Shown here: positions 10,490-61,150 of the stretch, piece by piece
How the letters are laid out: the number at the start of each line of letters is the position of its first letter
Numbering within the stretch: the first letter of the stretch is position 1
Origin: Mizuhopecten yessoensis
Taxonomy: Eukaryota
Length of the DNA: 64,000 nt
Direction: 5' to 3'
Assembly: GCF_002113885.1 (NCBI RefSeq)
Contig: NW_018408815.1
Span: 627,485-691,484, forward strand
Notes under the pieces: generated by a model
What the model was told of the DNA's origin: nothing
Databases searched by the model: none
What the model saw: only the letters and a program-made list of their open reading frames with translations
Position numbers and translations under genes: made by a program

Positions 10490-13400
10490 TGTGAAGATGC
10501 AGTCTCTCAGACACCATGTTATGACTGTTAGTTTGTATCCAATAGGGTACGTAAGGATGCAGTCTCTAAGACACCATGTTATGGCTGTTGATAAGTCTCT
10601 AAGACACCATGCTATGGCTGTTGATATAGTCTCTAAGACACCATGCAATGGATGTTTATACAGTCTCTCAAACATCATGTTATGACTGTTACTTTGTATA
10701 CAATAGGGTACGTAAGGATGCAGTCTCTAAGACACCATGTTATGGCTGTTGATAAGTCTCTAAGACACCATGCTATGGCTGTTGATATAGTCTCTAAGAC
10801 ACCATGCAATGGATGTTTATACAGTCTCTCAAACATCATGTTATGACTGTTACTTTGTATCCAATAAGGTACGTAAGGATGCAGTCTCTCAAACACCTTG
10901 TTATGGCTGATGATGCAGTCTATAAGACACCATGCTATGGCTGTTGATGCAGTGTCTAAGACACCATGCTATGGCTGTTACTTTGGGTACAATAGGGCAC
11001 GTAAGGATGCAGTCTCTAAGACACCATACTATGGATGTTGTGCTGTCTCTTAGACACCATGCTATGGCTGTTGATAAGTCTCTCAGACACCTTGCTATGG
11101 TTGTTGATGCAGTCCCTCAGACACCTTGCTATGGTTGTTGATGCCTAAGACACCATGCTATGGCTGTTACTTTGTATACAATAGGGTACGGAAGGATGCA
11201 GTCTCTAAGACACCATGCTATGGCTGTTACTTTGTATACAATAGGGGACGTAAGGATGCAGTCTTTAAGATACCATGCTATTGCTGTTGATACGGTCTCT
11301 CAGACACCATGCTATGGCTGTTGATGCAGTTTCTTAAACACCATGTTATGACTGTTACTTTGTATTTGATGCAGTCTCTCAGACACCTTGCTATGGCTGT
11401 TGATGCAGTGTCTAAGACCCCATGCTATGGCTGTTATTATGGCTGTTACTTTGTATACAATAGGGTACGGAAGGATGCAGTCTCTAAGACACCATGCTAT
11501 GGCTATTGATAAAGTCTCTCAGACACCATGCTATGACTGTTAGTTTGTAAACAATAGTGTACGTAAGGATGCAGCCTCTAGGACACCATGCTATGGCTGT
11601 TGATGGTACGTAAGGATGCAGTCTCTCAAACACCATGTTATGGCTGATGATGTAGTCTATAAGACGCCATGCTATGGCTGTTGATGCAGTCTCTAAGACA
11701 CCATGCTATGGATGTTGTGCTGTCTCTTAGACACTCTAAGACACCATGCAATGGATGTTTATACAGTCTCTAAAACATCATGTTATGACTGTTACTTTGT
11801 ATCCAATAAGGTACGTAAGGATGCAGTCTCTCAAACACCATGTTATGGCTGATGATGCAGTCTATAAGACCCCATGCTATGGCTGTTGATGCAGTCTTTA
11901 TGACACCATGCTATGGATGTCGATGCAGTCTCTAAGACACCATGCTATGGATGTTGTGCTGTCTCTTAGACACCATGCTATGGCTGTTGATACAGTCTCT
12001 CAGACACCATGCTATGACTGTTAGTTTGTAAACAATAGGGTACGTAAGGATGCAGTCTCTAAGACACCATGCTATGGCTATTGATAAAGTCTCTCAGACA
12101 CCATGCTATGACTGTTAGTTTGTAAACAATAGGGTACGTAAGGATGCAGTCTCTCAAACACCATGTTATGGCTGATGATGTAGTCTATAAGACGCCATGC
12201 TATGGCTGTTGATGCAGTCTCTAAGACACCATGCTATGGCTATTGATACAGTCTCTCAGACACCATGCTATGACTGTTAGTTTGTAAACAATAGGGTACG
12301 TAAGGATGCAGTCTCTAGGACACCATGCTATGGCTGCTGATGCAGTGTCTAAGACACCATGCTATGGCTGTTACTATGGCTGTTATTTTGTATACAATAG
12401 GGTACGTAAGGATGCAGTCCCTAAGACACCTTGCTATGGCTGTTGATGCAGTCTCTCAGACATCATGCTATGGATGTTTGTTTGTATACCATTGGGTACG
12501 TAAGGATGTAGTCTCTCAGACGCCATGCTATGGCTGTTGATACAGTCTCTAAGACACCATGCATTGGATGTTTATACAGTCTCTGAAACATCATGTTATG
12601 ACTGTTACTTTGTATCCAATAAGGTACGTAAGGATGCAGTCTCTCAAACACCATGTTATGGCTGATGATGCAGTCTATAAGACACCCTGCTATGGCTGTT
12701 GATGCAGTCTTTAAGACACCATGCTATGGATGTCGATGCAGGCTCTTAGACACCATGCTATGGATGTTGATGCAGTCTCTTAGACACCATGCTATGGATG
12801 TTGATGCAGTCTCTAAGACGAAATGTTTTGACTGTAACTTTGTATACAATAGGGTACTTAAGGATGCAGTCTCTAAGACACCATGTTATGGCTGTTGATA
12901 CAGTCTCTCAGACACCATGCTATGACTGTTAGTTTGTAAACAATAGGGTACGTAAGGATGCAGTCTCTAGGACACCATGCTATGGCTGTTGATGCAGTGT
13001 CTAAGACACCATGCTATGGCTGTTACTTTGTATACAATAGGATACGTAAGGATGCAGTCTCTAAGACACCATGCTATGGCTGCTGATGCAGTCTTTTAGT
13101 CACCATGCTATGACTGCTGATACAGTCTCTCAAACACCATGTTATGACTGTTACTTTGTATTTGATGCAGTCTCTCAGACATCATGCTATGGATGTTAGG
13201 TTGGATACAATTGGGGACGTAAGGATGCAGTCTCTCAGCTACCATTCTATGGCTGTTGATACAGTCTCTCAGACACCGTACTATGGCTGTTGATGCAGTG
13301 TCTAAGACAGCATGCTATGGCTGTTACTTTGTATAGAATAGGATACGTAAGGATGCAGTCTCTCAGACCCCATGCTATGGCTGTTGATGCAGTTTCTTAA

Positions 13401-14790
13401 ACACCATGTTATGACTGTTACTTTGTATACAATAGGATACGTAAGGATTTGATACAGTCTCTAAGACAAAATGTTTTGACTGTATACAAAGTAACAGTCA
13501 TAACATGGTGTTTAAGAGACTGTATCAGCAGTCATAGCTTGGTGACTAAAAGACTGCATCAGCAGCCATAGCATCGTGTCTTAGAGACTGCATCTTTACG
13601 TTTCCTATTGTATTCAAAGTAACAGCCATAGCATGGTGTCTAAGAGACAGCACAACATCCATAGCATGGCGTCTTAGAGAATGCATCCTTACGTACCCTA
13701 TTGTATACAAGGTAACAGTCAAAACATTTTGTCTTAGAGACTGCATCCTTACTTACCCAATTGTATACAAACAAACATCCATAGCAAGATGTCTGAGAGA
13801 CTGCATCAACTAACATAGCAAGATGTCTGTGGGACTGCATCAACAACAATAGCAAGGTGTCTGAGAGAATGCATCAACAACAATAGCAAGGTGTCTGAGA
13901 GCCTGCATCAACACCCAAAGCATGGTGTCTGAGAGACTGCATCAACACCCAAAGCATGGTGTCTGAGAGACTGCATCATCAGCCATAGCAAGGTGTCTGA
14001 GGTACTGCATCAACAACCATAGCATGGTGTCTTAGACAGTGCATCAACAGCCATAGCAAGGTGTCTGAGGTACTGCATCAACAACCATAGCATGGTGTCT
14101 TAGAGACTGCATCGTTAAGTACCCTATTGTATACAAGCTAACATCCATAGCATGATGTCTGAGAGACTGCATCAACACCCAAAGCATGGTGTCTGAGAGA
14201 CCGTATCAACAGCCATAGCATGGTGTCCTAGAGACTGCATCCTTACGTATACAATAGGATACGTAAGGATGCAGTCTCTAGGACACCATGCTATGGCTGT
14301 TGATGTAGTCTCTCAGACACCTTGCTATGGTTGTTGATGCAGTCCCTCAGACACCTTGCTATGGTTGTTGATGCAGTCCCTCAGACATCTTGCTATGGTA
14401 GTTGATGCAGTCTCTCAGACACCTGCTATGGTTGTTGATGCAATCTCTCAGACACCTTGCTTTGGTTGTTGATGCAGTCTGTCTCTCAGAAACCTTGACA
14501 GGTTGTTGATGCAGTCTCTCAGACACCTTGCTATGGTTGTTGATGCAGTCTCTCAGACACCTTGCTATGGCTGTTGATGCAGTCTCTCAGACATCATGCT
14601 ATGGATGTTAGTTTGTATACAATTGGGTACGTAAGGATGTAGTCTCTCAGACACCATGCTATGGATGTTGATGCGGTCTCTCAGACATCATGCTATGGAT
14701 GTTAGTTTGTATACAATTTGGAACGTAATAATGTAGTCTCGCAGACACCATGCTATGGATGTTAGTTTGTATACAATAAGGTACGCAAGA
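10490..14790. repeat. Complex minisatellite: 34 bp unit plus 60 bp variant, with higher-order structure and an internal inversion (13481-14250)
   Basis: Unit gatgcagtctctaagacaccatgctatggctgtt; the long variant adds actttgtatacaatagggtacgtaag. A 161 bp higher-order repeat occurs near 10520-10880. Confidence 0.97.
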
Positions 14791-32382: not shown

Positions 32383-33356
32383 ATAGAGGATCTGTCATAA
32401 GTTTCCCTTCATATTCAATTTATGATACGAGCCTGTGGCGAGCAAATATGAAAAATCCAAAACGAGTATCATAAATCTAATATGAAGGGAAACTTATGAC
32501 AGATTCTTTGCATCATATAATACAAAGTAAACTGTATAATTGTGATCTGAAACGAATATTTTGCACTTGGCCGCCTCTGAAACGATGAAAATTGCGTCTG
32601 CTTCACAATGACGTGACGTCACATTGATTGTTCCTTTAAGCAATAAATATTTATATTTTCGTAATGAGAAATCGCAAAAAATAATGTATGTCTTTTCCAA
32701 CTTACAAATTTCCCGCTTATTACCGTCAGGTCAGGTCTATATCTAGAACGGCACTAAGATAACAGCTGACGACACGCGCTATTTCCCATACAAAATTGAA
32801 AAGACTTAAAACGCAACTTTCGTTAATAATTCATACGTTTTTAATTTATATATATCATATTCTCAATTCATAAAATAGTAACAAATAACATTTTGTAAAT
32901 AACTATTCAAGTGTCGTTAAACATTATCCGATTTTATTGCAACCTATATCCGGCGCACGCACTCAACGAAAGCCCGCAGTAATCAGGTCAGAGTTATATT
33001 TGCAGTCCGGCATGTTGTTGATGTTGATCGTGCAATCCAGGCGTAAAATTGTTTGTTGATCTCACAGACACTTGAGACAGGCAGCTGGTGTTCGGGATCA
33101 AAGCAGAAGATACCGATACGTTTGGTAGTGACACTGTAAGGTCGCTCGGAGGTGACAAGACCAACTTCAGTTATAGTCTCATACCATGAAGCTGCTATTG
33201 TCAGTACTTTAGTAGTAATATAGAAGGGCTTTGCCACACCAAATGTAAATATATTCGATTGGGACGTCACATCCGGAGTGATATTACACACGTTACATAA
33301 ACATAATTTATGTGATGGCTTTATGTCACTGCATAACACGGTATTCATATGATAAA
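32383..33356 (+). mobile_element. Asymmetric hairpin element E2 (Crypton-like non-autonomous element, about 975 bp)
   Basis: Hairpin at 32383-32509 (tctgtcataagtttcccttcatatt…aatatgaagggaaacttatgacaga). The adjacent atcatataatac (32512-32523) is mirrored by gtattcatatgat at 33341-33353. Confidence 0.65.
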
Positions 33357-36492: not shown

Positions 36493-37260
36493 CTAATTAA
36501 CATAAGCTACGTTAAGCGCAAAAATACGATTTATTATTAAAATGCTAATTAAAGTTTAAAATTGATTTCAATGGTTGTATTTTGCGGAAGTGAAAAACCT
36601 TATATGATACCATAAAAAGATGATCTTATTCATCTTTTACATAATGACAAGGCAAAACAGCGGTAACCCATCTTTAACTGTTTGATACATTTATGCCTTT
36701 GATGACGCCTACATCTCGAAATTAGCCGATGGCCGCGAAGGCAGTTCATGATATAGGTCTCGTGAACTCAGTTATTGTTGGTAAATGGACACAAGGTTAT
36801 TAACTTGCCAATCGATGTGTTCGACACTGTCATTTGAGTAGCAAAGGAAACCATACCGTTCCGGTGTACTTGTAGGACTTCCATCACAGCCTAATCACAT
36901 TTGACCGCTGTTGAATATACTTAGCTATAAGAATGGTAATTGTCCTGTTTTCAGACACAAAGAGACTTACTATTTACTTATTTTCTCCGACAACTACATA
37001 TAAATGTTATGTATCCCATGATATGTGTATACAAAACTCGTTTTTATATTGCTTCCGGCTCATTTTACTTGAATGTATAAAAATTACTACACAATGTCGA
37101 ACTAGCATTTTTAGCTCAAATGAAAGGAAATATGACGTTCAATTCGTTGATTTGTTATTCACGAGCTGTTCGACGGTTGCGTGTGATTTATATCGACCCA
37201 ATTGACATAAGTATAGTTATGTATCGGTTACAAACTGTGTTCCCTTAGACAATGTACGAN

Positions 37261-37431
37261 GCAGAGTTATCTTCTCTTGGGAGCAGGTATTGATTGTTAC
37301 GTCATTGGTTTGTGCGAGAAAATTACGTCGTTTTCTCAAAAAGTGATGACGTTACTCTCACAAACAAGTGACGTAACAATCAATACCTGCTCCCAAGAGA
37401 AGATAACTCTGCAATACGCAAAGACGGAATA
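37261..37431. mobile_element. Palindromic (fold-back) MITE, left end cut by an assembly gap
   Basis: gcagagttatcttctcttgggagcaggtattgattgttacgtca is mirrored exactly by tgacgtaacaatcaatacctgctcccaagagaagataactctgc. N at 37260. Confidence 0.85.
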
Positions 37432-41460: not shown

Positions 41461-41530
41461 GGCATCCAGTATTTGAGACACTCACATACTCATCGATAAC
41501 ATCACAGTCACTTGTCAGGACACGGTAGAT

Positions 41531-42766
41531 ATGGCGCTCACCAACTCCAGTAACACGTCCTATGAGTATGACTTCCTCGAGTATTGTGACGAAGAGGACA
41601 ACACAACAGCCGTGGCCAACGTCACTATGGGCTTTCCTACCTCTATTTCCAGCATGACTGTTATACTTGTGACGTCATACTCTTTAATATGTTTTATCGG
41701 CCTGATTGGAAATGGATTGGTGATATATGTTGTTCTTCGGTTTGCTAAAATGAAGACTGTGACAAACTTATACATTTTAAATTTGGCCATATCTGACGCG
41801 TTCTTTCTCATGAGTCTACCTTTCCTGGTAACAACTTCTATTCTACATTACTGGCCATTTGGTGCAGCCATGTGTAAAATTTTCTTTGTCCTGGTGTCCA
41901 TCAACCTATTCACAGGAATCTTTACACTGACCGCTCTCAGCGGTGACCGATATCTGGCGGTCTGTCATCCGGTGCGGTCAAGCCAGTACCGGACCACAAA
42001 TATCGCGTTTTTTGTGTGCCTATGTCTCTGGTCAATATCCTTCGTGGTGATGTTACCCATAATTCTGTACTCGACGACTGTCCAACAGGACATGGGAAAT
42101 CCGACACATGAAACCTGCACCATCGTCTGGCCAAAAGGACAGCTCATACCAGCTAGCAAAGCGTTTACTTGGTACACGTTTCTGCTTGGTTTTGCGATTC
42201 CTGTGTCCATGATATCCGTTCTTTACCTATCCGTCATTCTCCGCTTACGTACGGTTGGGCCTGTTATCAAATCGAAGGAAAAGAGGAGAACACACAGGAA
42301 AGTGACCCGGATGGTTCTTACCGTGATCTTTGTGTACATAATTTGTTGGCTTCCCTACTGGGGATTCCAAGTTCACCTCACGTTCATGAAAAGCGGATTC
42401 AGCTTACCAGAGTGGCGTGTTTACTTGTTTAGTTTTTTTACTGTCCTCACAAACGCAAACAGTATGCTCAATCCAGTACTTTACGCTTTCCTGAGCGACA
42501 ACTTTCGTCGCAGTTTTGCGAAAGCATTCAAATGTCTGGGTCGAGCAGACATGGATCGTAGCATATATACCAGGGAAAGTAGCGTTCCTGCGAAAAGCAA
42601 ACAATGGCGTAACGACTCGTGCAAAACACCTAAAGGAGATAAGTACGAAATGGCTACCATGCTAACAAGTACTGATAACACTCATCAGGTGCCAAAGTCA
42701 GGCAGCAAGGGATCTGTCAACGACGAGAGTAACTTATACGTAGACAAGGAGAGTCAGACCCAGTGA
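41531..42766 (+). CDS. AstC-R: Class A neuropeptide GPCR, allatostatin-C receptor / somatostatin receptor-like (411 aa, single coding exon)
   Basis: Seven hydrophobic segments with rhodopsin-family motifs: GN (TM1), NLAISD (TM2), WPFG and C3.25, DRY, CWLPY (TM6), NPVLY-AFLSDNF (TM7/H8). The stretch 'GNGLVIYVVLRFAKMKTVTNLYILNLA' and the tail 'AFLSDNFRRSF' are characteristic of the SSTR/AstC-R clade. No Asp at 3.32, as in protostome AstC receptors. Four N-terminal N-glycosylation sequons. In-frame TGA at 41474-41476 supports this ATG. Confidence 0.93.
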   Translation: MALTNSSNTSYEYDFLEYCDEEDNTTAVANVTMGFPTSISSMTVILVTSYSLICFIGLIGNGLVIYVVLRFAKMKTVTNLYILNLAISDAFFLMSLPFLVTTSILHYWPFGAAMCKIFFVLVSINLFTGIFTLTALSGDRYLAVCHPVRSSQYRTTNIAFFVCLCLWSISFVVMLPIILYSTTVQQDMGNPTHETCTIVWPKGQLIPASKAFTWYTFLLGFAIPVSMISVLYLSVILRLRTVGPVIKSKEKRRTHRKVTRMVLTVIFVYIICWLPYWGFQVHLTFMKSGFSLPEWRVYLFSFFTVLTNANSMLNPVLYAFLSDNFRRSFAKAFKCLGRADMDRSIYTRESSVPAKSKQWRNDSCKTPKGDKYEMATMLTSTDNTHQVPKSGSKGSVNDESNLYVDKESQTQ

Positions 42767-47070: not shown

Positions 47071-48509
47071 CTGTTGGTGTTTCTTTTTCTGATGTTAAAG
47101 TGTTGAAATATGACGATATCAAATATAAGGAAATACATTTTTCTTTATATATGTCTTATGATAACTGAAAGGGTTTCTTTTTTAAACAATGTGTAAAACT
47201 ATTTATTCATACTTCTGTATCTTTAAATTGGAAAGATGTTTTCTTTTTATAACAACATCAACTGTATTTAGATTATACCATAAATCTACCACGAAGGTGA
47301 GAATGGCGACATGGCCATGTGCAGTAACATTGTAAAATAAAGGGGCGCCTTTCTCTGTTCATAGCACTATTATGTGTATCAGTTTTCTTTAGCAGTTTCT
47401 GATGGAGGGATGGTTGGGCCTAATCTTTACATAACTCGAGTTAGTTAATAATAAATTGCATGAAGCTGAAGGAAATGAGGTAAATAAGACGACTAGGTAT
47501 GTCGACATTTGGAACCGTTTTCCCTATCAGGTTAACATTGTGTTTTGAATATCACATGTTTGTCTTTTGGAAACGAAGACTGCATTTTATACAGATATAT
47601 AATTAAAACGAACAACGGCTGAAGGTCATGACGTCACCATGTAAGGCATTAACAATGACATATAAAGTCTTGTTAATATATATGTAATTTTTATCTTGGA
47701 ATAAACATTCTATTAAAATGGAAAATGAAATCATCCCGAAATATGTCGGTTACTTAAGTTAAGGACACGTTTTACTTTAATGTCATGTTCATCTAGTGAC
47801 CTCTTCATGGTTAAGTCTACTGTATTTATTTAAGCATTGAACTGGTTTTGTGTGGTATTTATGATCTATTTGAATGACACAGCTTTGCAAGCAAACAACA
47901 TAATGCACGCTTCAAATAGATCATAAATACCATAAAAAACAGTTCAATACTTATATTTACGTTTTCTCTGTCTCTTATGTTCTTTTTTAACTTATAATTT
48001 ATATATATAAAAAAAAAAAAATCCCGCCTTATCGACAGTCCACACAATTTCGTTCAATAGTTTGAACAGCGTATTGTCGCGTGATGATTGGAAATCAAAC
48101 ACTTCAACTTTATTCCACAATTCAGTATCAATACAATTGCGTATGATATGTATATAGTGTGATTTAAGTTTATCAATAGAACTCTGAGCTGAAAGTTAGA
48201 TTTGAAATTGTTACGATTTTCCCCCGGAACAAATTTCGCGCATGGACAAATACAGTGAACACCGTAAATCCGACCTTGCCCTCCACGAGGGAGTTATTTT
48301 TGGAAGTTTATTCGAACTTTTCTCTTTGCTCATTTTGTGAAGAATCCAGGCGTGAATTTATTTGTTGATTGTATGGGAACCTGACAACAGTCGGTAGATT
48401 CTATAACAGCCTCGTTATTTGACCTGTCGTCAGAATTAAACTGAGGAACCGTAGATGCGAGACGCGTGAAACTGATAGCGTTTGAAGTGAGTGATCTTGC
48501 GACGGAGCA

Positions 48510-52044: not shown

Positions 52045-55000
52045 GTCTAGTTAGCAGTATCCAATAATCTAGAGTTACGTGTGTAACACTATCTACAAAC
52101 CTAGAGTTACCTGTATAACAGTATTTACATGCAATAACCTAGTGTTACCTGTGCAACACTATATCCTTACCTAGAGTTACCTGTTTAACATTATCTATTA
52201 ACCTAGAGTTACCTGTGTAACATTATCTAATAACCTAGTGTTACCTGTGTAACACTATCTAATAACCTAGAGTTACCCGTGTAACAGTATCTAATAACCA
52301 AGAGTTACCTGTGTAACAATATCTAATAACCTAGTGTTACCTGTGTAACAGTATCTAATAACCTAGTGTTACCTGTGTAACAGTATCTAATAACCTAGAG
52401 TTACCTGTGTAACAGTATCTAATAACCTAGAGTTACCTGTGTAACAGTATCTAATAACCTAGAGTTACATGTATAACAGTATCTAATAACCTAGAGTTAC
52501 CTGTGTTACATGTATAACAGTATCTAATAACCTAGAGTTACCTGTGTAACTCTAGGTTATTAGATACTGCTAAACAGGTAACACTAGGTTATTAGATAAT
52601 GTTAAACAGGAAACTCTAGGTTATTGCATGTAGATAATGTTATACAGGTAACCTAGAGTTACCTGTATAACAGTATCTAGTAACCTAGAGTTACATGTAT
52701 ATTAGTATCTAATAACCTAGAGTTACCTGTGTAACAGTATCAAATAACCTAGAGTTACCTGTATAACATTATCTACATGCAATAACCTAGAGTTACCTGT
52801 TTAACATTATCTAATAACCTAGAGTTACCTGTGTAACATAATCTAATAACCTAGTGTTACCTGTTTAGCAGTATCTAATAACCTAGAGTTACCTGTGTAA
52901 CACTATCTAATAACCTAGTGTTACCTGTGTAACAGTATCTAATAACCTAGAGTTACCTGTATAACAGTATCTTATAACCTAGAGTTACCTGTGTAACAGT
53001 ATCTAATAAACTACAGTTACCTGTATAACAGTATCTAATAACCTAGAGTTACCTATGTAACAGTATCTAATGACCTAGAGTTACCTGTGTAACACTATCT
53101 AATAACCTAGTGTTACCTGTGTAACAGTATCTAATAACCTAGTGTTATCCGCGTAACAGTATCTAATAACCTAGAGTTACCCGTGTAACAGTATCTAATA
53201 ACATAGAGTTACCTGTGTAACAGTATCTAATAGCCTAGAGTTACCTGTGTAACAGTATCTAATAACCTACAGTTACCTGTTTAACAGTATCTAATAACCT
53301 AGAGTTACCTGTATAACATAATCTAATAACCTAGAGTTACCTGTGTAACAGTATCTAATAACCTAGAGTTACCTGTGTTACAGTATCTAATAACCTAGTG
53401 TTACCTGTGTAAAACTATCTAATAACCTACAGTTACCTGTGTTACAGTATTTAATAACCTAGAGTTACCTGTATAACAGTATCTAATAACCTAGAGTTAC
53501 CTGTATAACAGTATCTAATAACCTAGAGTTACCTGTATAACAGTATCTAATAACCTAGAGTTACCTGTGTAACACTATCTAATAGCCAAGAGTAACCTGT
53601 GTAACACTATCTAATAACCTAGAGTTACCTGTGTAACACTATCTAATAACCTAGAGTTTTCTGTGTAACACTATCTAATAACCTAGAGTTATCTGTGTAA
53701 CACTATCTAATAACCTAGAGTTACCTGTATAACAGTATCTAATAACCTAGAGTTACCTTTGTAACAGTATCTAATAACCTAGAGTTACCTGTATAACAGT
53801 ATCTATAAACCTAGAGTTGCCTGTATAACCACTATCTAATAACCTAGAGTTACCTGTGTAACACTATCTAATAACCTAGAGCTACCTGTGTAACACTATC
53901 TAATAACCTAGAGTTACCTGTATAACAGTATCTATAAACCTAGAGTTACCTGTATAACAGTATCTAATAACCAAGAGTTACCTGTATAACAGTATCTAAT
54001 AACCTAGAGTTACCTGTATAACAGTATCTATAAACCTAGAGTTACCTGTATAACAGTATCTAATAACCTAGAGTTACCTGTGTAACACTATCTAATAGCC
54101 TAGAGTTACCTGTGTAACAGTATCTAATAACCAAGAGTTTCCTGTGTAACACTATCTAATAACCTAGAGTTACCTGTGTAACAGTATCTAATAACCTATA
54201 GTTACCTGTGTAACACTATCTAATAACCTAGAGTTACCTGTTTAACAGTATCTAATAACCTAGAGTTACCTATGTAACAGTATCTAATAACCTAGAGTTA
54301 CCTGTGTAACAGTATCTAATAAACTAGTGTTACCTGTGTAACAGTATCTTATAACAAAGAGTTACCTGTGTAACAGTATCTAATAACCTAGTGTTACCTG
54401 TGTAACAGTATCTAAAACCTAGAGTTGCCTGTATAACAGTATCTAATAACCTAGTGTTACCTGTGTAACAGTATCTAATAACCTAGTGTTACCTGTGTAA
54501 CAGTATTTAATAACCTACAGTTACCTGTGTAACAGTATCTAATAACCTAGTGTTACATGTATAACAGTATCTAATAACCTAGAGTTACCTGTGTAACACT
54601 ATCTAATAACCTAGTGTTTCCTGTGTAACAGTATCTAATAACCTAGTGTTACCTGTGTTACAGTATCTAATAACCTAGAGTTACGTGTGTAACAATATCT
54701 AATAACCTAGTGTTACCTGTGTAACAGTATCTAATAACCTAGAGTTACATGTGAAACACTATCTAATAACCTAGTGTTACCTGTGTAACATTATCTCATA
54801 ACCTAGAGTTACCTGTGTAACACTATCTAATAACCTAGTGTTACCTGTGTAACACTATCTAATAACCTAGAGTTACCTATGTAACAGTATCTAATAACCT
54901 AGAGTTACCTCTGTTACAGTATCTAATAACCTAGAGTTACCTGTGTTACAGTATCTAATGACCTAAAGTTACGTGCGTAACACTATCTAATAACCTAGAG

Positions 55001-56970
55001 TTACCTGTGTTACAGTATCTAATAACCTAGTGTTACATGTATAACAGTATCTAATAACCTAGAGTTACGTGTGTAACAATATCTAATAACCTAGTGTTAC
55101 CTGTGTAACAGTATCTAATAACCTAGAAACAGTATCTAATAACCTAGAGTTACCTGTGTAAGAGGCTCTAATAACCTAGAGTTACCTGTATAACAGTATC
55201 TATAAACCTAGAGATACCTGTATAACAGTATCTAATAACCTAGAGTTACGTGTGTAACACTATCTAATAACCTAGAGTTACCTATGTAACAGTATCTAAT
55301 AACCTAGTGTTACCTGTGTAACAGTATCTAAAACCTAGAGTTGCCTGTATAACAGTATCTCATAACCTAGTGTTACCTGTGTAACAGTATTTAATAACCT
55401 TCAGTTACCTGTGTAACAGTATCTAATAACCTGGAGTTACCTGTATAATAGTATCTAATAACCTATAGTTACCTGTGTAACACTATCTAATAACCTAGTG
55501 TTACCTGTGTAACAGTATCTCATAACCTAGAGTTACCTGTGTAACACTATCTTATAACCTAGTGTTACCTGTGTAACAGTATCTAAAACCTAGAGTTGCC
55601 TGTATAACAGTATCTCATAACCTAGTGTTACCTGTGTAACAGTATTTAATAACCTTCAGTTACCTGTGTAACAGTATCTAATAACCTAGAGTTGCCTGTA
55701 TAACAGTATCTAATAACCTAGTGACCTGTGTAACAGTATCTAATAACCTAGTGTTACCCGTGTAACAGTATCTAATAACCTAGAGTTACCTATGTAACAG
55801 TATCTAATAACCTAGAGTTACCTCTGTTACAGTATCTAATAACCTAGAGTTACCTGTGTAAGAGGCTCTAATAACCTAGAGTTACCTGTATAACAGTATC
55901 TATAAACCTAGAGATACCTGTATAACAGTATCTAATAACCTAGAGTAACCTGTGTAACAGTATCTAATAACCTAGAGTTACCTCTGTTACAGTATCTAAT
56001 AACCTAGAGTTACCTGTATAACAGTATCTATAAACCTAGAGATACCTGTATAACAGTATCTAATAACCTAGAGTAACCTGTGTAACAGTATCTAATAACC
56101 TAGAGTTACATGTGAAACACTATCTAATAACCTAGTGTTACCTGTGTAACAGTATCTAAAACCTAGAGTTGCCTGTAAAACAGTATCTAATAACCTAGTG
56201 TTACCTGTGTAACACTATCTAATAACCTAGTGTTACCTGTGTAACATTATCTCATAACCTAGAGTTACCTGTGTAACACTATCTTATAACCTAGTGTTAC
56301 CTGTGTAACAGTATCTAAAACCTAGAGTTGCCTGTATAACAGTATCTAATAACCTAGAGTAACCTGTGTAACAGTATCTAATAACCTAGAGTTACATGTG
56401 AAACACTATCTAATAACCTAGTGTTACCTGTGTAACAATATCTAATAACCTAGAGTTACCTGTGTAACAGTATACAATTGTTTCATGGCTATTTGGGGAA
56501 CAGTCAAAACTATCATCCCTCAGTAGGGGGAAGCCCTGTGGAACTGTTTGCCCTTGGCCTAGTGGCCTCGGCCAAACAGTTCCCCAGGACTTCCCCCTAC
56601 CTCGGGAGGATAGTTTTGACTGTTCCCCAAATAGCCATGAAACAATTGTTTTATTACCAAATAAATATTAGTATAAATGCTGCATGCAATGTTGCCATTG
56701 CTTCAAGACTGAGTCGCGGTCACCGAAACGCTTGAAGGGGGCTCTCGAGGGGGGATTTCTGCGCATCGAATTCGCGCCGGGTAACAGTTCGCTCTGACCG
56801 GGAAAACAGTTTTGACTGTTTCACCCCTACAGCCGAAATTGGACAAAAAACCAGAAACAGTCAAAAATGACTAGTTATAATTTATATAGACTATTGGGTA
56901 ATAATATCTAATAACCTAGAGTTTCCCGTGTAACAGTATCTAATAACCTAGAGTTACATGTGTAACATTA
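52045..56970. repeat. Satellite, 32 bp unit (about 140 copies), with an internal inversion (52546-52652) and an element insertion (56473-56904)
   Basis: taacctagagttacctgtgtaacagtatctaa repeated; the unit contains an internal gttac/gtaac inverted pair. Confidence 0.98.
56473..56904 (+). mobile_element. Asymmetric hairpin element E1 (Crypton-like non-autonomous element, 432 bp) inserted at TA in the satellite
   Basis: 176 bp hairpin at 56474-56649 with a 41 bp perfect outer stem. ttattaccaaata (from 56651) is mirrored by tattgggtaataa (56892-56904). The satellite unit cagTAtctaa is split with TA on both sides. Confidence 0.88.
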
Positions 56971-59589
56971 TTATTATGACACAGAATTTCCTGTCTTCAG
57001 CTAAAGAACAATCAAGAAAAGTAAATGGCAACAAAACGGCTATTTTTACTCGAAGCGATGATGATGGTGACCATAACAGAAGGCCATGGTCTTCATCAAA
57101 TTGTATCGTTTGCATTTTGTTGCTTTTTGCATTTTTTATGTGCTTAATCAATAGATTCATTATATTAGAATTACCATTCATTAACTACGCCTACATTGGT
57201 CTTGTAAGGAGGAGCACGGCTGTCAAAGTAAGATAGAATACCTCTGTAATTGTTTTCACCATGAACACCACAGTAGTAAAGGTATCTTTAAAAGTCTGCG
57301 CTATTGAAAATACAGGTAGATAGTACTGCTAGTTGATGTAATTTTGAGCGACTAACACGCGACCAACACGCGACTAACACGCACAAAAAAACTTCACTTA
57401 ACCATAATTCTCTTTTATGTGAAAACTTACAGATTTTGAGCAAATGGATAAATCAACCTGGTAAAATAATGTAGAATAAAATACCTAAACCAAGTGACCG
57501 CATTCAGAAAATAGGAAAAGCGTATTTTAGTTATGTACTAAAATTAATCTGTATGCATAGTACCCAAACAAATCAACATAAGTGATACAATCCAGATGTC
57601 ACGAAGGTAAATTAAAAGACATGAACTCTGACCAATTATTCTACGTATCAACTTTGCATGCGAAAATAAGGACTCAAATGATCGCCGTAATGCTAAAGCA
57701 GATACTTGTCCTGTAGCGCTGTCCTGTAGCGCTGTCCTTCAGCACACACTTGTGAGGTCGAGTGATTAGGGATGCATTAAATTACGACCAGTATCGGCGA
57801 CCGTCCAGCAGATACAGCTTGTCTAGTGATCCGATTAGGGAAATGCTTGAAAGAATCTCATGTGTTCTGGGTCCTGCTGATTTGATTTAAAATCGGAGTA
57901 TAACATATGCAGAAGTTGTCGGACTGGACAGAATGATTCGAAGATGATATAGTGGTTATTTCCCTAGGGGGTATTGGAAAGAAAATGCAATTAACATATC
58001 ATGATAACTATCAATCAATATCATGATATCCCGTAGGAAGAGAAACTGTTTAGCAAGTTTACCACAACGACAATGTTTAGTTTTCTATGGTTTACATTTA
58101 AAATGCATGCCTGATATAGAAATGAAATAATCATATCAGAATTTTTAAAATAACTATAGACATGAATTCAATCGTATCTGCTTAATCAGATATACATTAT
58201 TTAAGATATAAACTGTCTAGACATAGCAGGGTAAAATAGATAAACTTCATTACAAGAAATACCGCACTTTGATTGTGAAAAATGAGGCAACTACACCAGT
58301 ATGTCTGACGTATGCATATGTTGACAGTTATTTTCGTTGTGTCAAATCAAAAACATCAAAATGTTAAATTTAAACTTCCTGCTTGTTACCGTTGGGTAAG
58401 GTAAGTGCACTTTGTATCTACAACACACAAGAGAACAGCCAATTTCACTTTACTATTTACTATACAAAGTTGAACTGTTCTATCAACGCCATCATATTCA
58501 GTTATTGAATTGAATATAGAGTAAATAATAAATGTAAAGGTTAAAGACACATTCTATCGATGAAATTACGATAAAAGTGTCATGGAAGGTTTTAAAGACT
58601 GCTGAATATAGTACATAGCAGGTGCGCCAGGCAAAGAGCACCTTGTCTCACAGCGTCTTAGGATAAACCTGCCACACCAAATGTCATATTAAAAGTCTCA
58701 TACGTCATGTCTAACCCTTATAATGAGTAAGGAGGATAGTTTTATATAGCTGTTAGTTTCTGTCTCCCTTTACCATTCATTTATGTCAATATAGGGGAAT
58801 ACAGGAACACCCCTGTTACTATGTGTAGGAATTTTCCGAAGACATAAGTAACATTATAAGTAACATTTGACAATGCCGAATAAACTGTTGATATTAGCAC
58901 TACAAAGCTAACCATATGTGTTACTCCCATATAACTTCCGGTTTAGAATCTCTTAAACGGGTAACATAAAATTTTCGGAGTCTATATACATGTAGCACCA
59001 TTTACAATGTTTCTGTGATTCAAGACGAAAAGTATTCCAAGTGATTACTCGGGTCTCCTCCACAGCAGTAAAATAAGCTTGGTGTGTGCGGCATTGATTT
59101 CAATTACATTCCCAGATGCCTGATGTGGCCTTCCGTTCACATTTAGCTGGCTACCTAGTACTCCGCATGGTGCTTCCCCAGACCGCATTTAGATTCAACA
59201 GACGTTTGTTTGGAACAATGTTTGCTCCATATAGGCAAGATAAAATGGTTTGGGAGAACGCAGATGTCAGTTTGACATATATTACCCAAATGGTATTAAT
59301 ATTACAGATTACCGTACATATCTAAATTTATATTGTATTTATCGCGCTCGTTCCTATGACCTAAGCATATATGTTCAAACGTGTTACGTCTTGACGTGAT
59401 ATGCGTGTATCATATATTCATTCTGTCCTTTCTACTTGTCGAATATGAGCTCAGCATTAAATGTTACGTCAAATAAATACTCGGTTTTCATGTTATGATC
59501 AAATTTAATATGAAAAGGCAAAGCCTTAAAAGAGCGTAGCTTTTGTTGATCTCTGATATTTACTGATTAAGAATACAACTTTCAGAATG

Positions 59590-59670
59590 ATATAAGATAA
59601 ACTTTATTTAAAGTCGGCTAGTCGAGGAATAACAATAAAACACAAGCTCTAATGAGATTAAGACCGACAT
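59590..59670 (-). mobile_element. 3' tail of a truncated non-LTR retroelement (stem-loop, AATAAA, short-repeat tail)
   Basis: Minus strand reads gtcgg…ctcattagagcttg…gccgactttaaataaagtttatcttat: a gtcgg/ccgac stem followed by a poly(A) signal. Confidence 0.4.
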
Positions 59671-59680
59671 AACAACATGG

Positions 59681-60869
59681 AGACCGGGGCAAGTTCGGCC
59701 CTTTTTTATTTTTTTATTTAAGTCCGTTCTAGTAAGTATAGCAGCACGTCCGTTTTTGAACATTATTTAATATTTACATTCTGTATGCTTAGACCCATTG
59801 ACAAAAATTACATTCATAAATGCATAACACAGGTGTTCATAGAATCTCAGCACGTGGGAACTGATAGTAACCTGATCACACTGCGTAGTAATACACTACA
59901 AAAACTACTCACTCGGAACGACCGACCTAGATGCTTAATTCTTACATCTTAAAATATTATTGAACTGTGCTTTGTGAAATATCCACGTATTCACGTGTCC
60001 TGTGCTACAAATAAACATTGAATATGGAACTACATTTTGTTGTGTTATTGTTGTTGACGGTTGCTAAGATCTCTCACGATAGTGTCACATTTCCCCGCGA
60101 AAAAACACTGTTCTCGCCACTGCGTTGCACCCGTGTATAAGCAGGAACAAACCCTGTTTATTTGTTTTATTCGTTGTTATATCGATCCACTGAAAGGATT
60201 CGTCAATGTAAATATAAGGAATGATATTTATTTTTTCAACATTTATGAGGTCATAACAACAATGGGTTTTTGGACATATTTTACATGAATCGCTACGCGA
60301 TTCATTCAATATGTCCATAAACCCATTGTTGTTATGACCTCATAAATGTTGAAAAAATAAAAATCATTCCTTAAATTATCCTGTCGGAAGATCGGATGGT
60401 CGTAATTTCGGCCCCCTTTTGAATCAGCTTAATTATGACGTCATAAAGCATGCAACGTCAGATTTAACCGCCAATTTTACGAATTTTTATGTGTTACATG
60501 GGGCCGACTTGCCACGGTATCATTGGCCGAAACCGTCCTGGCCCAAATTGATATTTCAATAAATTCTTATCGTACAACAATACGGTAGTGAGTGATTGGC
60601 TTGGCTTTTATGTATTAGTATTTGAAGCTGTCAGTGTCTTACACGTTTCACTGTAAAAAGTTCGCATAACTAGAAGCGAGATCTTCCTTTTTTTCTACTC
60701 TCTCAAAAGTAATTTTCTCCTGTTAAGTCATTTTACATTAGAGTTTTCCTCGCCATTTTTTTGTCGTTGAATGCCCAGCCAACTAAACTGCTAGGATCCT
60801 TAAACTTGTAAATATTAGCTCAATTTTTTTTTTTTTATCAGGGATGGCCGAACTTGCCCCGGTTTACCG
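59681..60869. mobile_element. TIR non-autonomous DNA transposon (Tc1/mariner-pogo-like end) hosting a nested hairpin element
   Basis: accggggcaagttcggcc (59683-59700) and ggccgaacttgccccggt (60846-60863) form a perfect 18 bp inverted repeat; right end …ggtttaccg. Internal TIR-like motifs at about 60403 and 60501. Confidence 0.75.
59770..60375 (-). mobile_element. Asymmetric hairpin element E3 (about 605 bp), nested in the TIR element
   Basis: Near-perfect 159 bp hairpin at 60215-60373. The adjacent aatgtaaata (60205-60214) is mirrored by tatttacatt (59771-59780). Confidence 0.75.
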
Positions 60870-60999
60870 TGTGCAGATTTTTTTTTATCATTGATGATTG
60901 GTAAAAATGTATTCACAATATAATTTTTACATCAATGACGCCATTTTGTTCCAGTTAAAGCTCAAGTAGATATTTGTTCTTGTGCGTAACGTATATGAT

Positions 61000-61150
61000 G
61001 GGTTGGTGGCGCAGTGGATAGCGCGCTCGTCTTCACTATAAAAGATGGCCGGATTCAATCCCGGTCACCTGCCCGACACGCGGGTTTTCTCCGGATACTC
61101 CAGTTTCCTCCCATATTAAGAATTAAACCCTCTGCGTGCTTCCGTCAGGG
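61000..61150 (+). mobile_element. tRNA-derived V-domain SINE, family B copy 1
   Basis: A box tggcgcagtgg, B-box-like ggattcaatcc, V-domain-like gggttttctccggatactccagtttcctccca. Confidence 0.8.

Follow-up and report, generated by a model that had tools for sequence, protein, structure and literature searches.

A short dispersed repeat of Mizuhopecten yessoensis with a strand-biased terminal palindrome whose core very probably occurs in both orientations

The window (the whole 64,000-nucleotide stretch of Mizuhopecten yessoensis contig NW_018408815.1, to which all positions refer) contains a short element, E1, which we show to be a many-copy mobile element without genes. One end of E1 is a long palindrome, and its mismatches are biased toward one strand; judging from the sequences of its copies and relatives, this strand bias is a trait of the E1 family. 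The core of the palindrome very probably exists in both orientations within the family. The simplest reading of the palindrome, and in our opinion the likely one, is that selection acts on a folded form of it. The preliminary description of this DNA had proposed a folded single strand; a single strand or the arm of a cruciform would both fit.

The window is 35% GC and rich in satellites, and comparing it to itself revealed six long local hairpins beyond the satellite. E1 and the surrounding features are as follows.

56471..56904, plus strand: whole E1 element, about 434 bp, non-autonomous, with the 32-bp satellite as its host
56474..56649, no strand: terminal palindrome, 86-nt arms and a 4-nt loop
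56651..56663, plus strand: inner copy of the 13-nt inverted repeat, 92% identity with its partner
56892..56904, plus strand: terminal copy of the 13-nt inverted repeat, which forms the right end
56799..56869, no strand: part of the body with two extra copies of the arm motif AACAGTCAAAA, mutually facing
56637..56663, minus strand: internal junction of hairpin and body, a putative recombinase-type site; the same junction is found in the relatives L019 and L115
52055..56473, no strand: array of the 32-bp satellite that hosts E1, resuming at 56905-56971

E1 is non-coding and consists of the 176-nt palindrome followed by a body of about 255 nt between the 13-nt inverted repeats. It is flanked on either side by TAT (56471-56473 and 56905-56907), which makes a 3-nt direct repeat. 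In the family majority, the outermost 46 bp of the palindrome have no mismatch. When the predicted hairpin fold was compared with 200 shuffles, the z-scores for the two strands were -19 and -23, and none of the 200 was as good. The ends of the palindrome are unlike (TATAC at the terminus and GTTTTATTA at the body junction), and the left terminus of E1 finds its pairing partner in the internal junction rather than in the right terminus. If the internal junction is read on the minus strand, the right-end repeat is joined to left-end sequence, and so the junction would resemble that of an excised circle, 2 nt shorter. The arm-motif copies of the body are partly retained in L019. We rejected the reading of E1 as a structured RNA or microRNA gene because none of the eight Rfam matches in 56400-61000 (all to generic miRNA-hairpin models, far below the cut-offs) reached the gathering score. 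Inverted blocks also occur within the satellites, at 52263-52860 in the 32-bp array and at 10500-14763 in a 34-bp array.

The E1 region is present in 14 of 20 listed sequencing runs (four studies, one species label), and we aligned the contigs of four runs to positions 56448-56930 (453-658 contigs per run). E1 is dispersed, because the family's alignments end at fixed points (56904/56905 on the right and 56464-56471 on the left) and the flanks beyond are unlike. The summed depth of the body, which is not the same as copy number, is about a hundred times that of single-locus contigs and suggests that the family has hundreds of copies. Linked variants at 56634-56637 in the arm (about 12-30%) and a variant at 56849-56850 in the body (26-69%) point to subfamilies. 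The joint of 56506 to 56726, which has about 10 times the single-locus depth, may be an amplified deletion form of E1. Two deletions in the family excise the hairpin symmetrically (56486-56638 and 56509-56615), a sign that the palindrome folds in place in chromosomes. A joint from the end of E1 back to its start (56855 to 56466) was considered as a circle and rejected, because its depth was only that of a single locus.

The preliminary description had reported two internal bubbles in the E1 hairpin, CTCA opposite CTCG and CTTG opposite CTCG, and had derived each from CTCG:CTCG by one change at a CpG. Both bubbles are there (56519-56522 with 56601-56604, and 56553-56556 with 56567-56570). CTCA is indeed a changed CTCG: position 56522 reads G (A>G) in 96-98% of the depth in all four runs. 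The idea that CTTG is a private decay turned out to be wrong: position 56555 is C in just 12-26% of the depth, so CTTG is the majority form. Position 56522 is one of five hairpin letters private to this copy, the others being 56563 (T>C in 92-99% of the family depth), 56572 (G, 95-98%), 56589 (G, 94-98%), and 56608 (T, over 99%). Once the private letters are reverted, four stem mismatches become pairs and five stay: T.C and C.T in the outer bubble, T.C at 56539:56584, and T.C and T.T in the inner bubble. All five are Y.Y on the plus strand and R.R on the minus strand. The chance of such one-sided mismatch classes is about 0.001 if they are counted as five events and 0.02 if they are counted as three (using the transversion share of 9 of the 20 listed changes in run X1).

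56519..56522, minus strand: outer bubble, left side; majority CTCG, which is CGAG on the minus strand; the same bubble in L115
56601..56604, minus strand: outer bubble, right side; CTCG, which is CGAG on the minus strand
56539:56584, minus strand: single mismatch T.C, which is G.A on the minus strand; no variant row at 5%
56553..56570, minus strand: inner bubble (majority CTTG / CTCG) and apex; majority loop TAGC

The inner bubble in its majority form is, on the minus strand, CAAG opposite CGAG (G.A plus A.A), so perfect tandem G.A pairs are not required there. The apex is TAGC in 92-99% of the depth, and on the minus strand this reads C-GCTA-G, a GNNA loop. (This apex, the lone mismatch at 56539:56584, and a third CGAG in E2 were absent from the preliminary description.) The loop on the G.A strand is GCTA in E1, GAA in L115, GAA in L019, and GTA in E3. 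Thus, the proposal of strand-biased mismatches gains support at the level of the family, with all five R.R mismatches on one strand and a GNNA or GNA loop on that strand in E1 and both relatives. Nearest-neighbor folding favors the G.A strand by 3 kcal/mol only (-103.0 versus -99.8). CGAG blocks with sheared G.A pairs and GNA or GNNA loops are stable DNA motifs, according to the available portion of PMC10085684.

The two relatives come from a metagenome scan for the E1 arm motif (42 of 64 parts), which gave at least 116 loci that we compared by blastn. Among the matches listed, only L115 and L019 matched E1, and there were no relatives of E2 or E3. L115 and the E1 majority have 78 Watson-Crick pairs in common, and in 15 of these both partners differ between the two; for L019, the count is 14 of 56. 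(These counts were taken from arm-to-arm alignments; a MAFFT alignment was out of register at the apex.) In L115, both bubbles are in the same places as in E1; the outer one has a single C>T, the change also present in the inner bubble of the E1 majority, and the inner one is CTCG/CTCG. In L019, both bubbles have decayed. Both relatives have the loop TTC, which is C-GAA-G on the G.A strand. The preliminary description had suggested comparing the conservation of the bubbles with that of paired positions. In L115, the bubbles have stayed in place while pairs changed; within the species, no such difference is apparent, since most stem positions, like the bubble positions, are without variant rows.

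The arm-motif patterns of E1, the E3 apex, and the E2 motif had no matches in the viral collection, and scans of the prokaryote collection gave none either. A short core motif did match nine viral contigs, but none of them has the long hairpin, and we rejected them as relatives. Among three of these nine contigs whose ORFs were checked, the motif lies in a coding frame in two and between genes in one, and no recombinase was recognized by eye. A 213-kb viral contig has the same CGAG-stem-GAA-stem-CGAG mini-hairpin in an intergenic position (L123:3001-3021), adjoining another short hairpin. Fourteen loci (L100, L041, L021, and 11 more) hold a fully symmetric foldback element, several hundred bases long, whose loop is asymmetric and whose ends are TTAAAGGG; it is presumably a Kolobok-type MITE. 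This family was considered as an orientation control and dropped, because both of its sides are symmetric and it cannot be oriented.

A reading of the bubbles that involves no folding is that the CCTCGG units are oriented protein sites on double-stranded DNA, in which case the bubbles would be a by-product of having direct repeats within a palindrome. E1 does have four direct copies of NCCTYRG (at 56517, 56551, 56565, and 56599), and the inner CTTG variant has been amplified. The co-variation between the arms does not decide this issue, because it could come from arm-to-arm conversion; the bubbles escape such conversion despite containing CpG. Protein sites leave unexplained why the bubbles are at exact mirror positions, why there is a lone G.A mismatch, and why GNA or GNNA loops are on the same strand in all three E1-type hairpins and in E3, and we consider this reading improbable.

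The preliminary description had also proposed that the palindrome has flip and flop states, arguing that the favored strand is hairpin-first in E2 and E3 but the opposite one in E1, which presupposes the body sides of these hairpins. The proposal of two states is supported by evidence from outside that description, namely L019, L115, and contigs from the same species. In E1, the TC strand begins at the terminus. In both relatives, it begins at the body junction, so their cores are inverted relative to E1. The body of L019 aligns with the E1 body along its length and the junction is homologous; mis-assembly of L019 is unlikely because its perfect arms are short. L115 has 46-bp arms and starts at a contig end, and no body is visible.

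Within the species, each of the four runs has one contig, at the depth of a single locus, in which 56486 is joined to 56570. In run X1, this contig extends from the left terminus on to 56788. It contains 11 unplaced letters, of which 10 agree with the apex as read on the minus strand and, at best, 6 with the plus strand. An 83-nt deletion accompanies the inversion at this locus, the clearest flipped one, and a single chromosomal accident may have caused both.

We also considered the 32 contig pieces that were listed (another 2381 lie beyond these). Twelve of them overlap a bubble, and by simulating the placement of each isomer, we could read the orientation of eight: four are inverted (records 3, 27, 1, and 19) and four are E1-type (records 2, 17, 25, and 9). 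Record 27 is clipped at 56573, as the simulation of an inverted copy predicts. Records 1 and 19 break off at 56649 and continue with letters foreign to the body, which is how the simulated inverted copy behaves; a solo hairpin would look no different. As for the E1-type pieces, records 17, 25, and 9 are probably one locus (record 9 was assigned via record 25), and the call for record 2 depends on the assumed scoring. Records 4, 18, 20, and 26 overlap a bubble without giving orientation information. A joint of 56520 to 56615 (X1 only) was left out of the count as ambiguous, as its 15 unplaced letters match the minus strand at 14 of 15 positions and the plus strand at 12 of 15; and the orientation of the joints 56508-56553/56564, 56506-56726, and 56554-56807 is not firm. 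There are no T>G or C>A rows at the bubbles, which is not evidence against flipping, because short contigs cannot span the 46-bp perfect arms; such contigs are placed on whichever strand fits. The sample of orientations is small and consists of diverged copies.

Long inverted repeats are known to let the loop between them invert passively. The hairpin features might be selected and the element mobilized by a recombinase with a fixed polarity, while cores would become inverted passively and only later, in inserted copies, when the 46-bp perfect arms recombine or undergo template switching. Such a route would be in keeping with the many hairpin deletions (two of them symmetric), with the deletion at the best flipped locus, and with the age of the sampled copies, which are old because short-read contigs allow the phasing of diverged copies only. 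However, rare accidents would leave a clear majority, and the informative pieces split 4:4 while both relatives are opposite to E1, although these numbers are small. We regard passive inversion as a rather doubtful explanation.

Near-equal orientations among the informative pieces, and a single long terminal palindrome, would also be expected if the palindrome were the replicated hairpin telomere of a linear intermediate, since hairpin transfer or telomere resolution would give equal flip and flop. This seems very improbable to us: E1 has a hairpin at one end only, its junctions resemble recombination sites with a target motif, and each of the two strand versions would be needed as an end, which makes a one-strand stabilizer less expected.

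The ends of E1 bear on how it moves. In all eight listed rows of the family's right flanks, AAYTRTT stands at an identical offset; most listed flanks, though not every one, have T after the right end, and the left alignments often run on over ACAG (agreement with the flank consensus is just 44-51%, and the runs share loci). Each junction of E1 reads AAYA, 7-9 nt, TRTT. In the available part of PMC3212892, tyrosine-recombinase sites are described as two inverted half-sites with a 6-8-bp spacer. The ends and the internal junction of E1 look like such sites, and we somewhat favor a tyrosine recombinase as its mover.

We tentatively suggest that E1 is moved by a Crypton-type tyrosine recombinase, which would use a pair of sites that face each other to invert the hairpin as well. 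Three places in E1 would act as its sites, each of the form AAYA, 7-9 nt, TRTT: the two ends of the element and the internal junction. The target would mimic these sites. On excision, E1 would become a circle in which the newly formed circle junction and the internal junction lie in inverted orientation, and exchange between the two would turn the palindrome over relative to the body. The core of the intermediate would fold, either as one free strand or as an arm of a cruciform, with the G.A strand as the stable, recognized form. Either orientation would be usable, because the G.A strand is set by the core. We are close to evenly divided on whether hairpin inversion is part of the transposition cycle of E1. 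Against the whole chain, we found no enzyme (that is, no recombinase gene or autonomous partner among the ORFs of the window or L019 or by matches in the viral and prokaryote collections), the half-site spacings are unequal (7, 8, and 9 nt), which counts against a simple site-by-site exchange, and the hairpin deletions are symmetric. A broader possibility, which we regard as unlikely, is that widespread eukaryotic tyrosine-recombinase transposons combine a folded attC-like substrate with a second inverted site and so give flip/flop isomers in every cycle. We know of no description of such a mechanism in a eukaryotic transposon.

By analogy, E1 seems closest in its workings to the non-autonomous Cryptons, with a folded part that resembles attC, and we do not class it as a Crypton because it has inverted repeats. 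Non-autonomous Cryptons (CryptonA, CryptonI, and CryptonV) and E1 share the lack of coding capacity and perhaps a short direct repeat at the ends (available part of PMC3212892). They also share a target preference (CryptonV has target specificity, as stated in the accessible text of PMC8869645) and their distribution in marine animals. The terminal direct repeat is 4-6 bp in Cryptons and 3 nt (TAT) in E1. In the available parts of PMC3212892 and PMC13465315, Cryptons are described without terminal inverted repeats, and "hairpin" or "palindrome" does not occur for them; in contrast, E1 has the 13-nt repeat, the 86-nt arms, and a 176-nt external palindrome with two probable core orientations. 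According to the available part of PMC13565253, transposition of Cryptons has not been shown experimentally, and the standing model is a plain double-stranded circle.

In integrons, a tyrosine recombinase can act on attC sites by using just one of their strands in folded form (PMC2727003, as far as available, here and for the following points). Like the E1 hairpin, attC is an imperfect palindrome whose two strands fold differently, and some attC sites have a GAA triplet at the tip. Strand choice in attC is mainly by extrahelical bases, with little effect of the tip, whereas E1 has no extrahelical base that is conserved, and its purine bubbles are symmetric. DIRS elements, which belong to the tyrosine-recombinase elements, have an internal sequence that is complementary to both joined ends (available part of PMC13465315), as E1 does, but E1 lacks their link to reverse transcriptase and their long terminal repeats.

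Alternatively, E1 could be a non-autonomous rolling-circle element of the HLE2/Helentron type, in which an HUH enzyme moves a single strand, with the palindrome serving as an unusually large 3' stem-loop. When read on the minus strand, the layout of E1 matches the available description of these elements (PMC11417382), with terminal inverted repeats of 12-16 nt and an external stem-loop beyond the right repeat, and a single-strand mechanism would directly explain the G.A and GNA motifs. On the other hand, E1 has a TAT direct repeat instead of a T|T insertion site, its flanks have a dyad-like target motif on both sides that resembles its own end, and its arms are 86 bp long. Also, rolling-circle transposition moves one fixed strand, which is a poor fit to an invertible core. 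We think that this origin is unlikely. A DDE-superfamily MITE was rejected, as E1 does not have inverted repeats at both outer termini.

Inversion of the palindrome by a recombinase would have an analogue in the yeast 2-micron circle, where FLP/FRT inversion gives two isomers, and the flip/flop ends of parvoviruses and poxviruses are isomers of one element that differ by inversion. These are kilobase replicons with known enzymes, whereas the E1 isomers are 0.4-kb chromosomal insertions. Parvoviral terminal hairpins are at both ends of a genome that encodes Rep and capsid; E1 has one hairpin and no Rep or capsid ORF nearby, and we rejected it as a parvoviral terminal hairpin. A literature search of titles and abstract openings (Repbase, which was outside its scope, may already hold these families) found nothing that matches the anatomy of E1 and no description of G.A bubbles or flip/flop in Crypton-like elements. 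If our suggestion is correct, then it would connect the recombinase transposons of eukaryotes with the folded-DNA recombination known from integrons. If the inversion is passive, then E1 would be an ordinary non-autonomous repeat with a well-kept hairpin. As an abundant, minimal substrate of 434 bp with defined ends, a strand-biased fold, and two likely isomers, E1 leads to sharp predictions on the proportion of isomers among young copies, on the circle junction, and on what pairing the bubbles would do.

Two other hairpins in the window, E2 and E3, have no sequence in common with E1 or with each other.

32387..32507, no strand: E2 hairpin, sequence unrelated to E1; CGAG at 32428, 32439, and 32463
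60211..60377, no strand: E3 hairpin, sequence unrelated to E1; loop at 60294-60296

E2 had been described as closing with CGAG:CGAG. The two blocks are present (gataCGAG at 32428 and aCGAGtatc at 32463), but the third CGAG, at 32439, gives a rival pairing: 32428 can pair locally with 32439 around a 3-nt loop, which is not GNA. In the pairing that was originally described, one G-C pair closes it below a 31-nt loop. Because of the alternative pairing, E2, which may be a deleted copy, is not clean evidence. For E3, the reported GC-GTA-GC apex on the minus strand was confirmed (loop TAC at 60294-60296). Near the loop, TC is opposite T(TA)C (60282-60284 / 60306-60307), which may be a decayed TGAA:TGAA bubble on the strand with the GTA loop. 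To the right of E3 there is a copy of the arm motif (13 of 14 match), as in the body of E1. This is a weak sign that the body of E3 is on the right and that E3 has the polarity of E1, contrary to the preliminary description.

Other long hairpins of unrelated sequence are at 37261-37412, 47828-47956, and 1241-1390, and their predicted folds have no GNA tip. The hairpin at 37261-37412 begins directly after an assembly N at 37260. The window's one long ORF (41477-42766, plus strand) is an intronless-looking frame of 429 amino acids that encodes a rhodopsin-family receptor (Pfam 7tm_1, E = 3e-64), which by eye we take to be similar to the somatostatin/allatostatin-C receptors.
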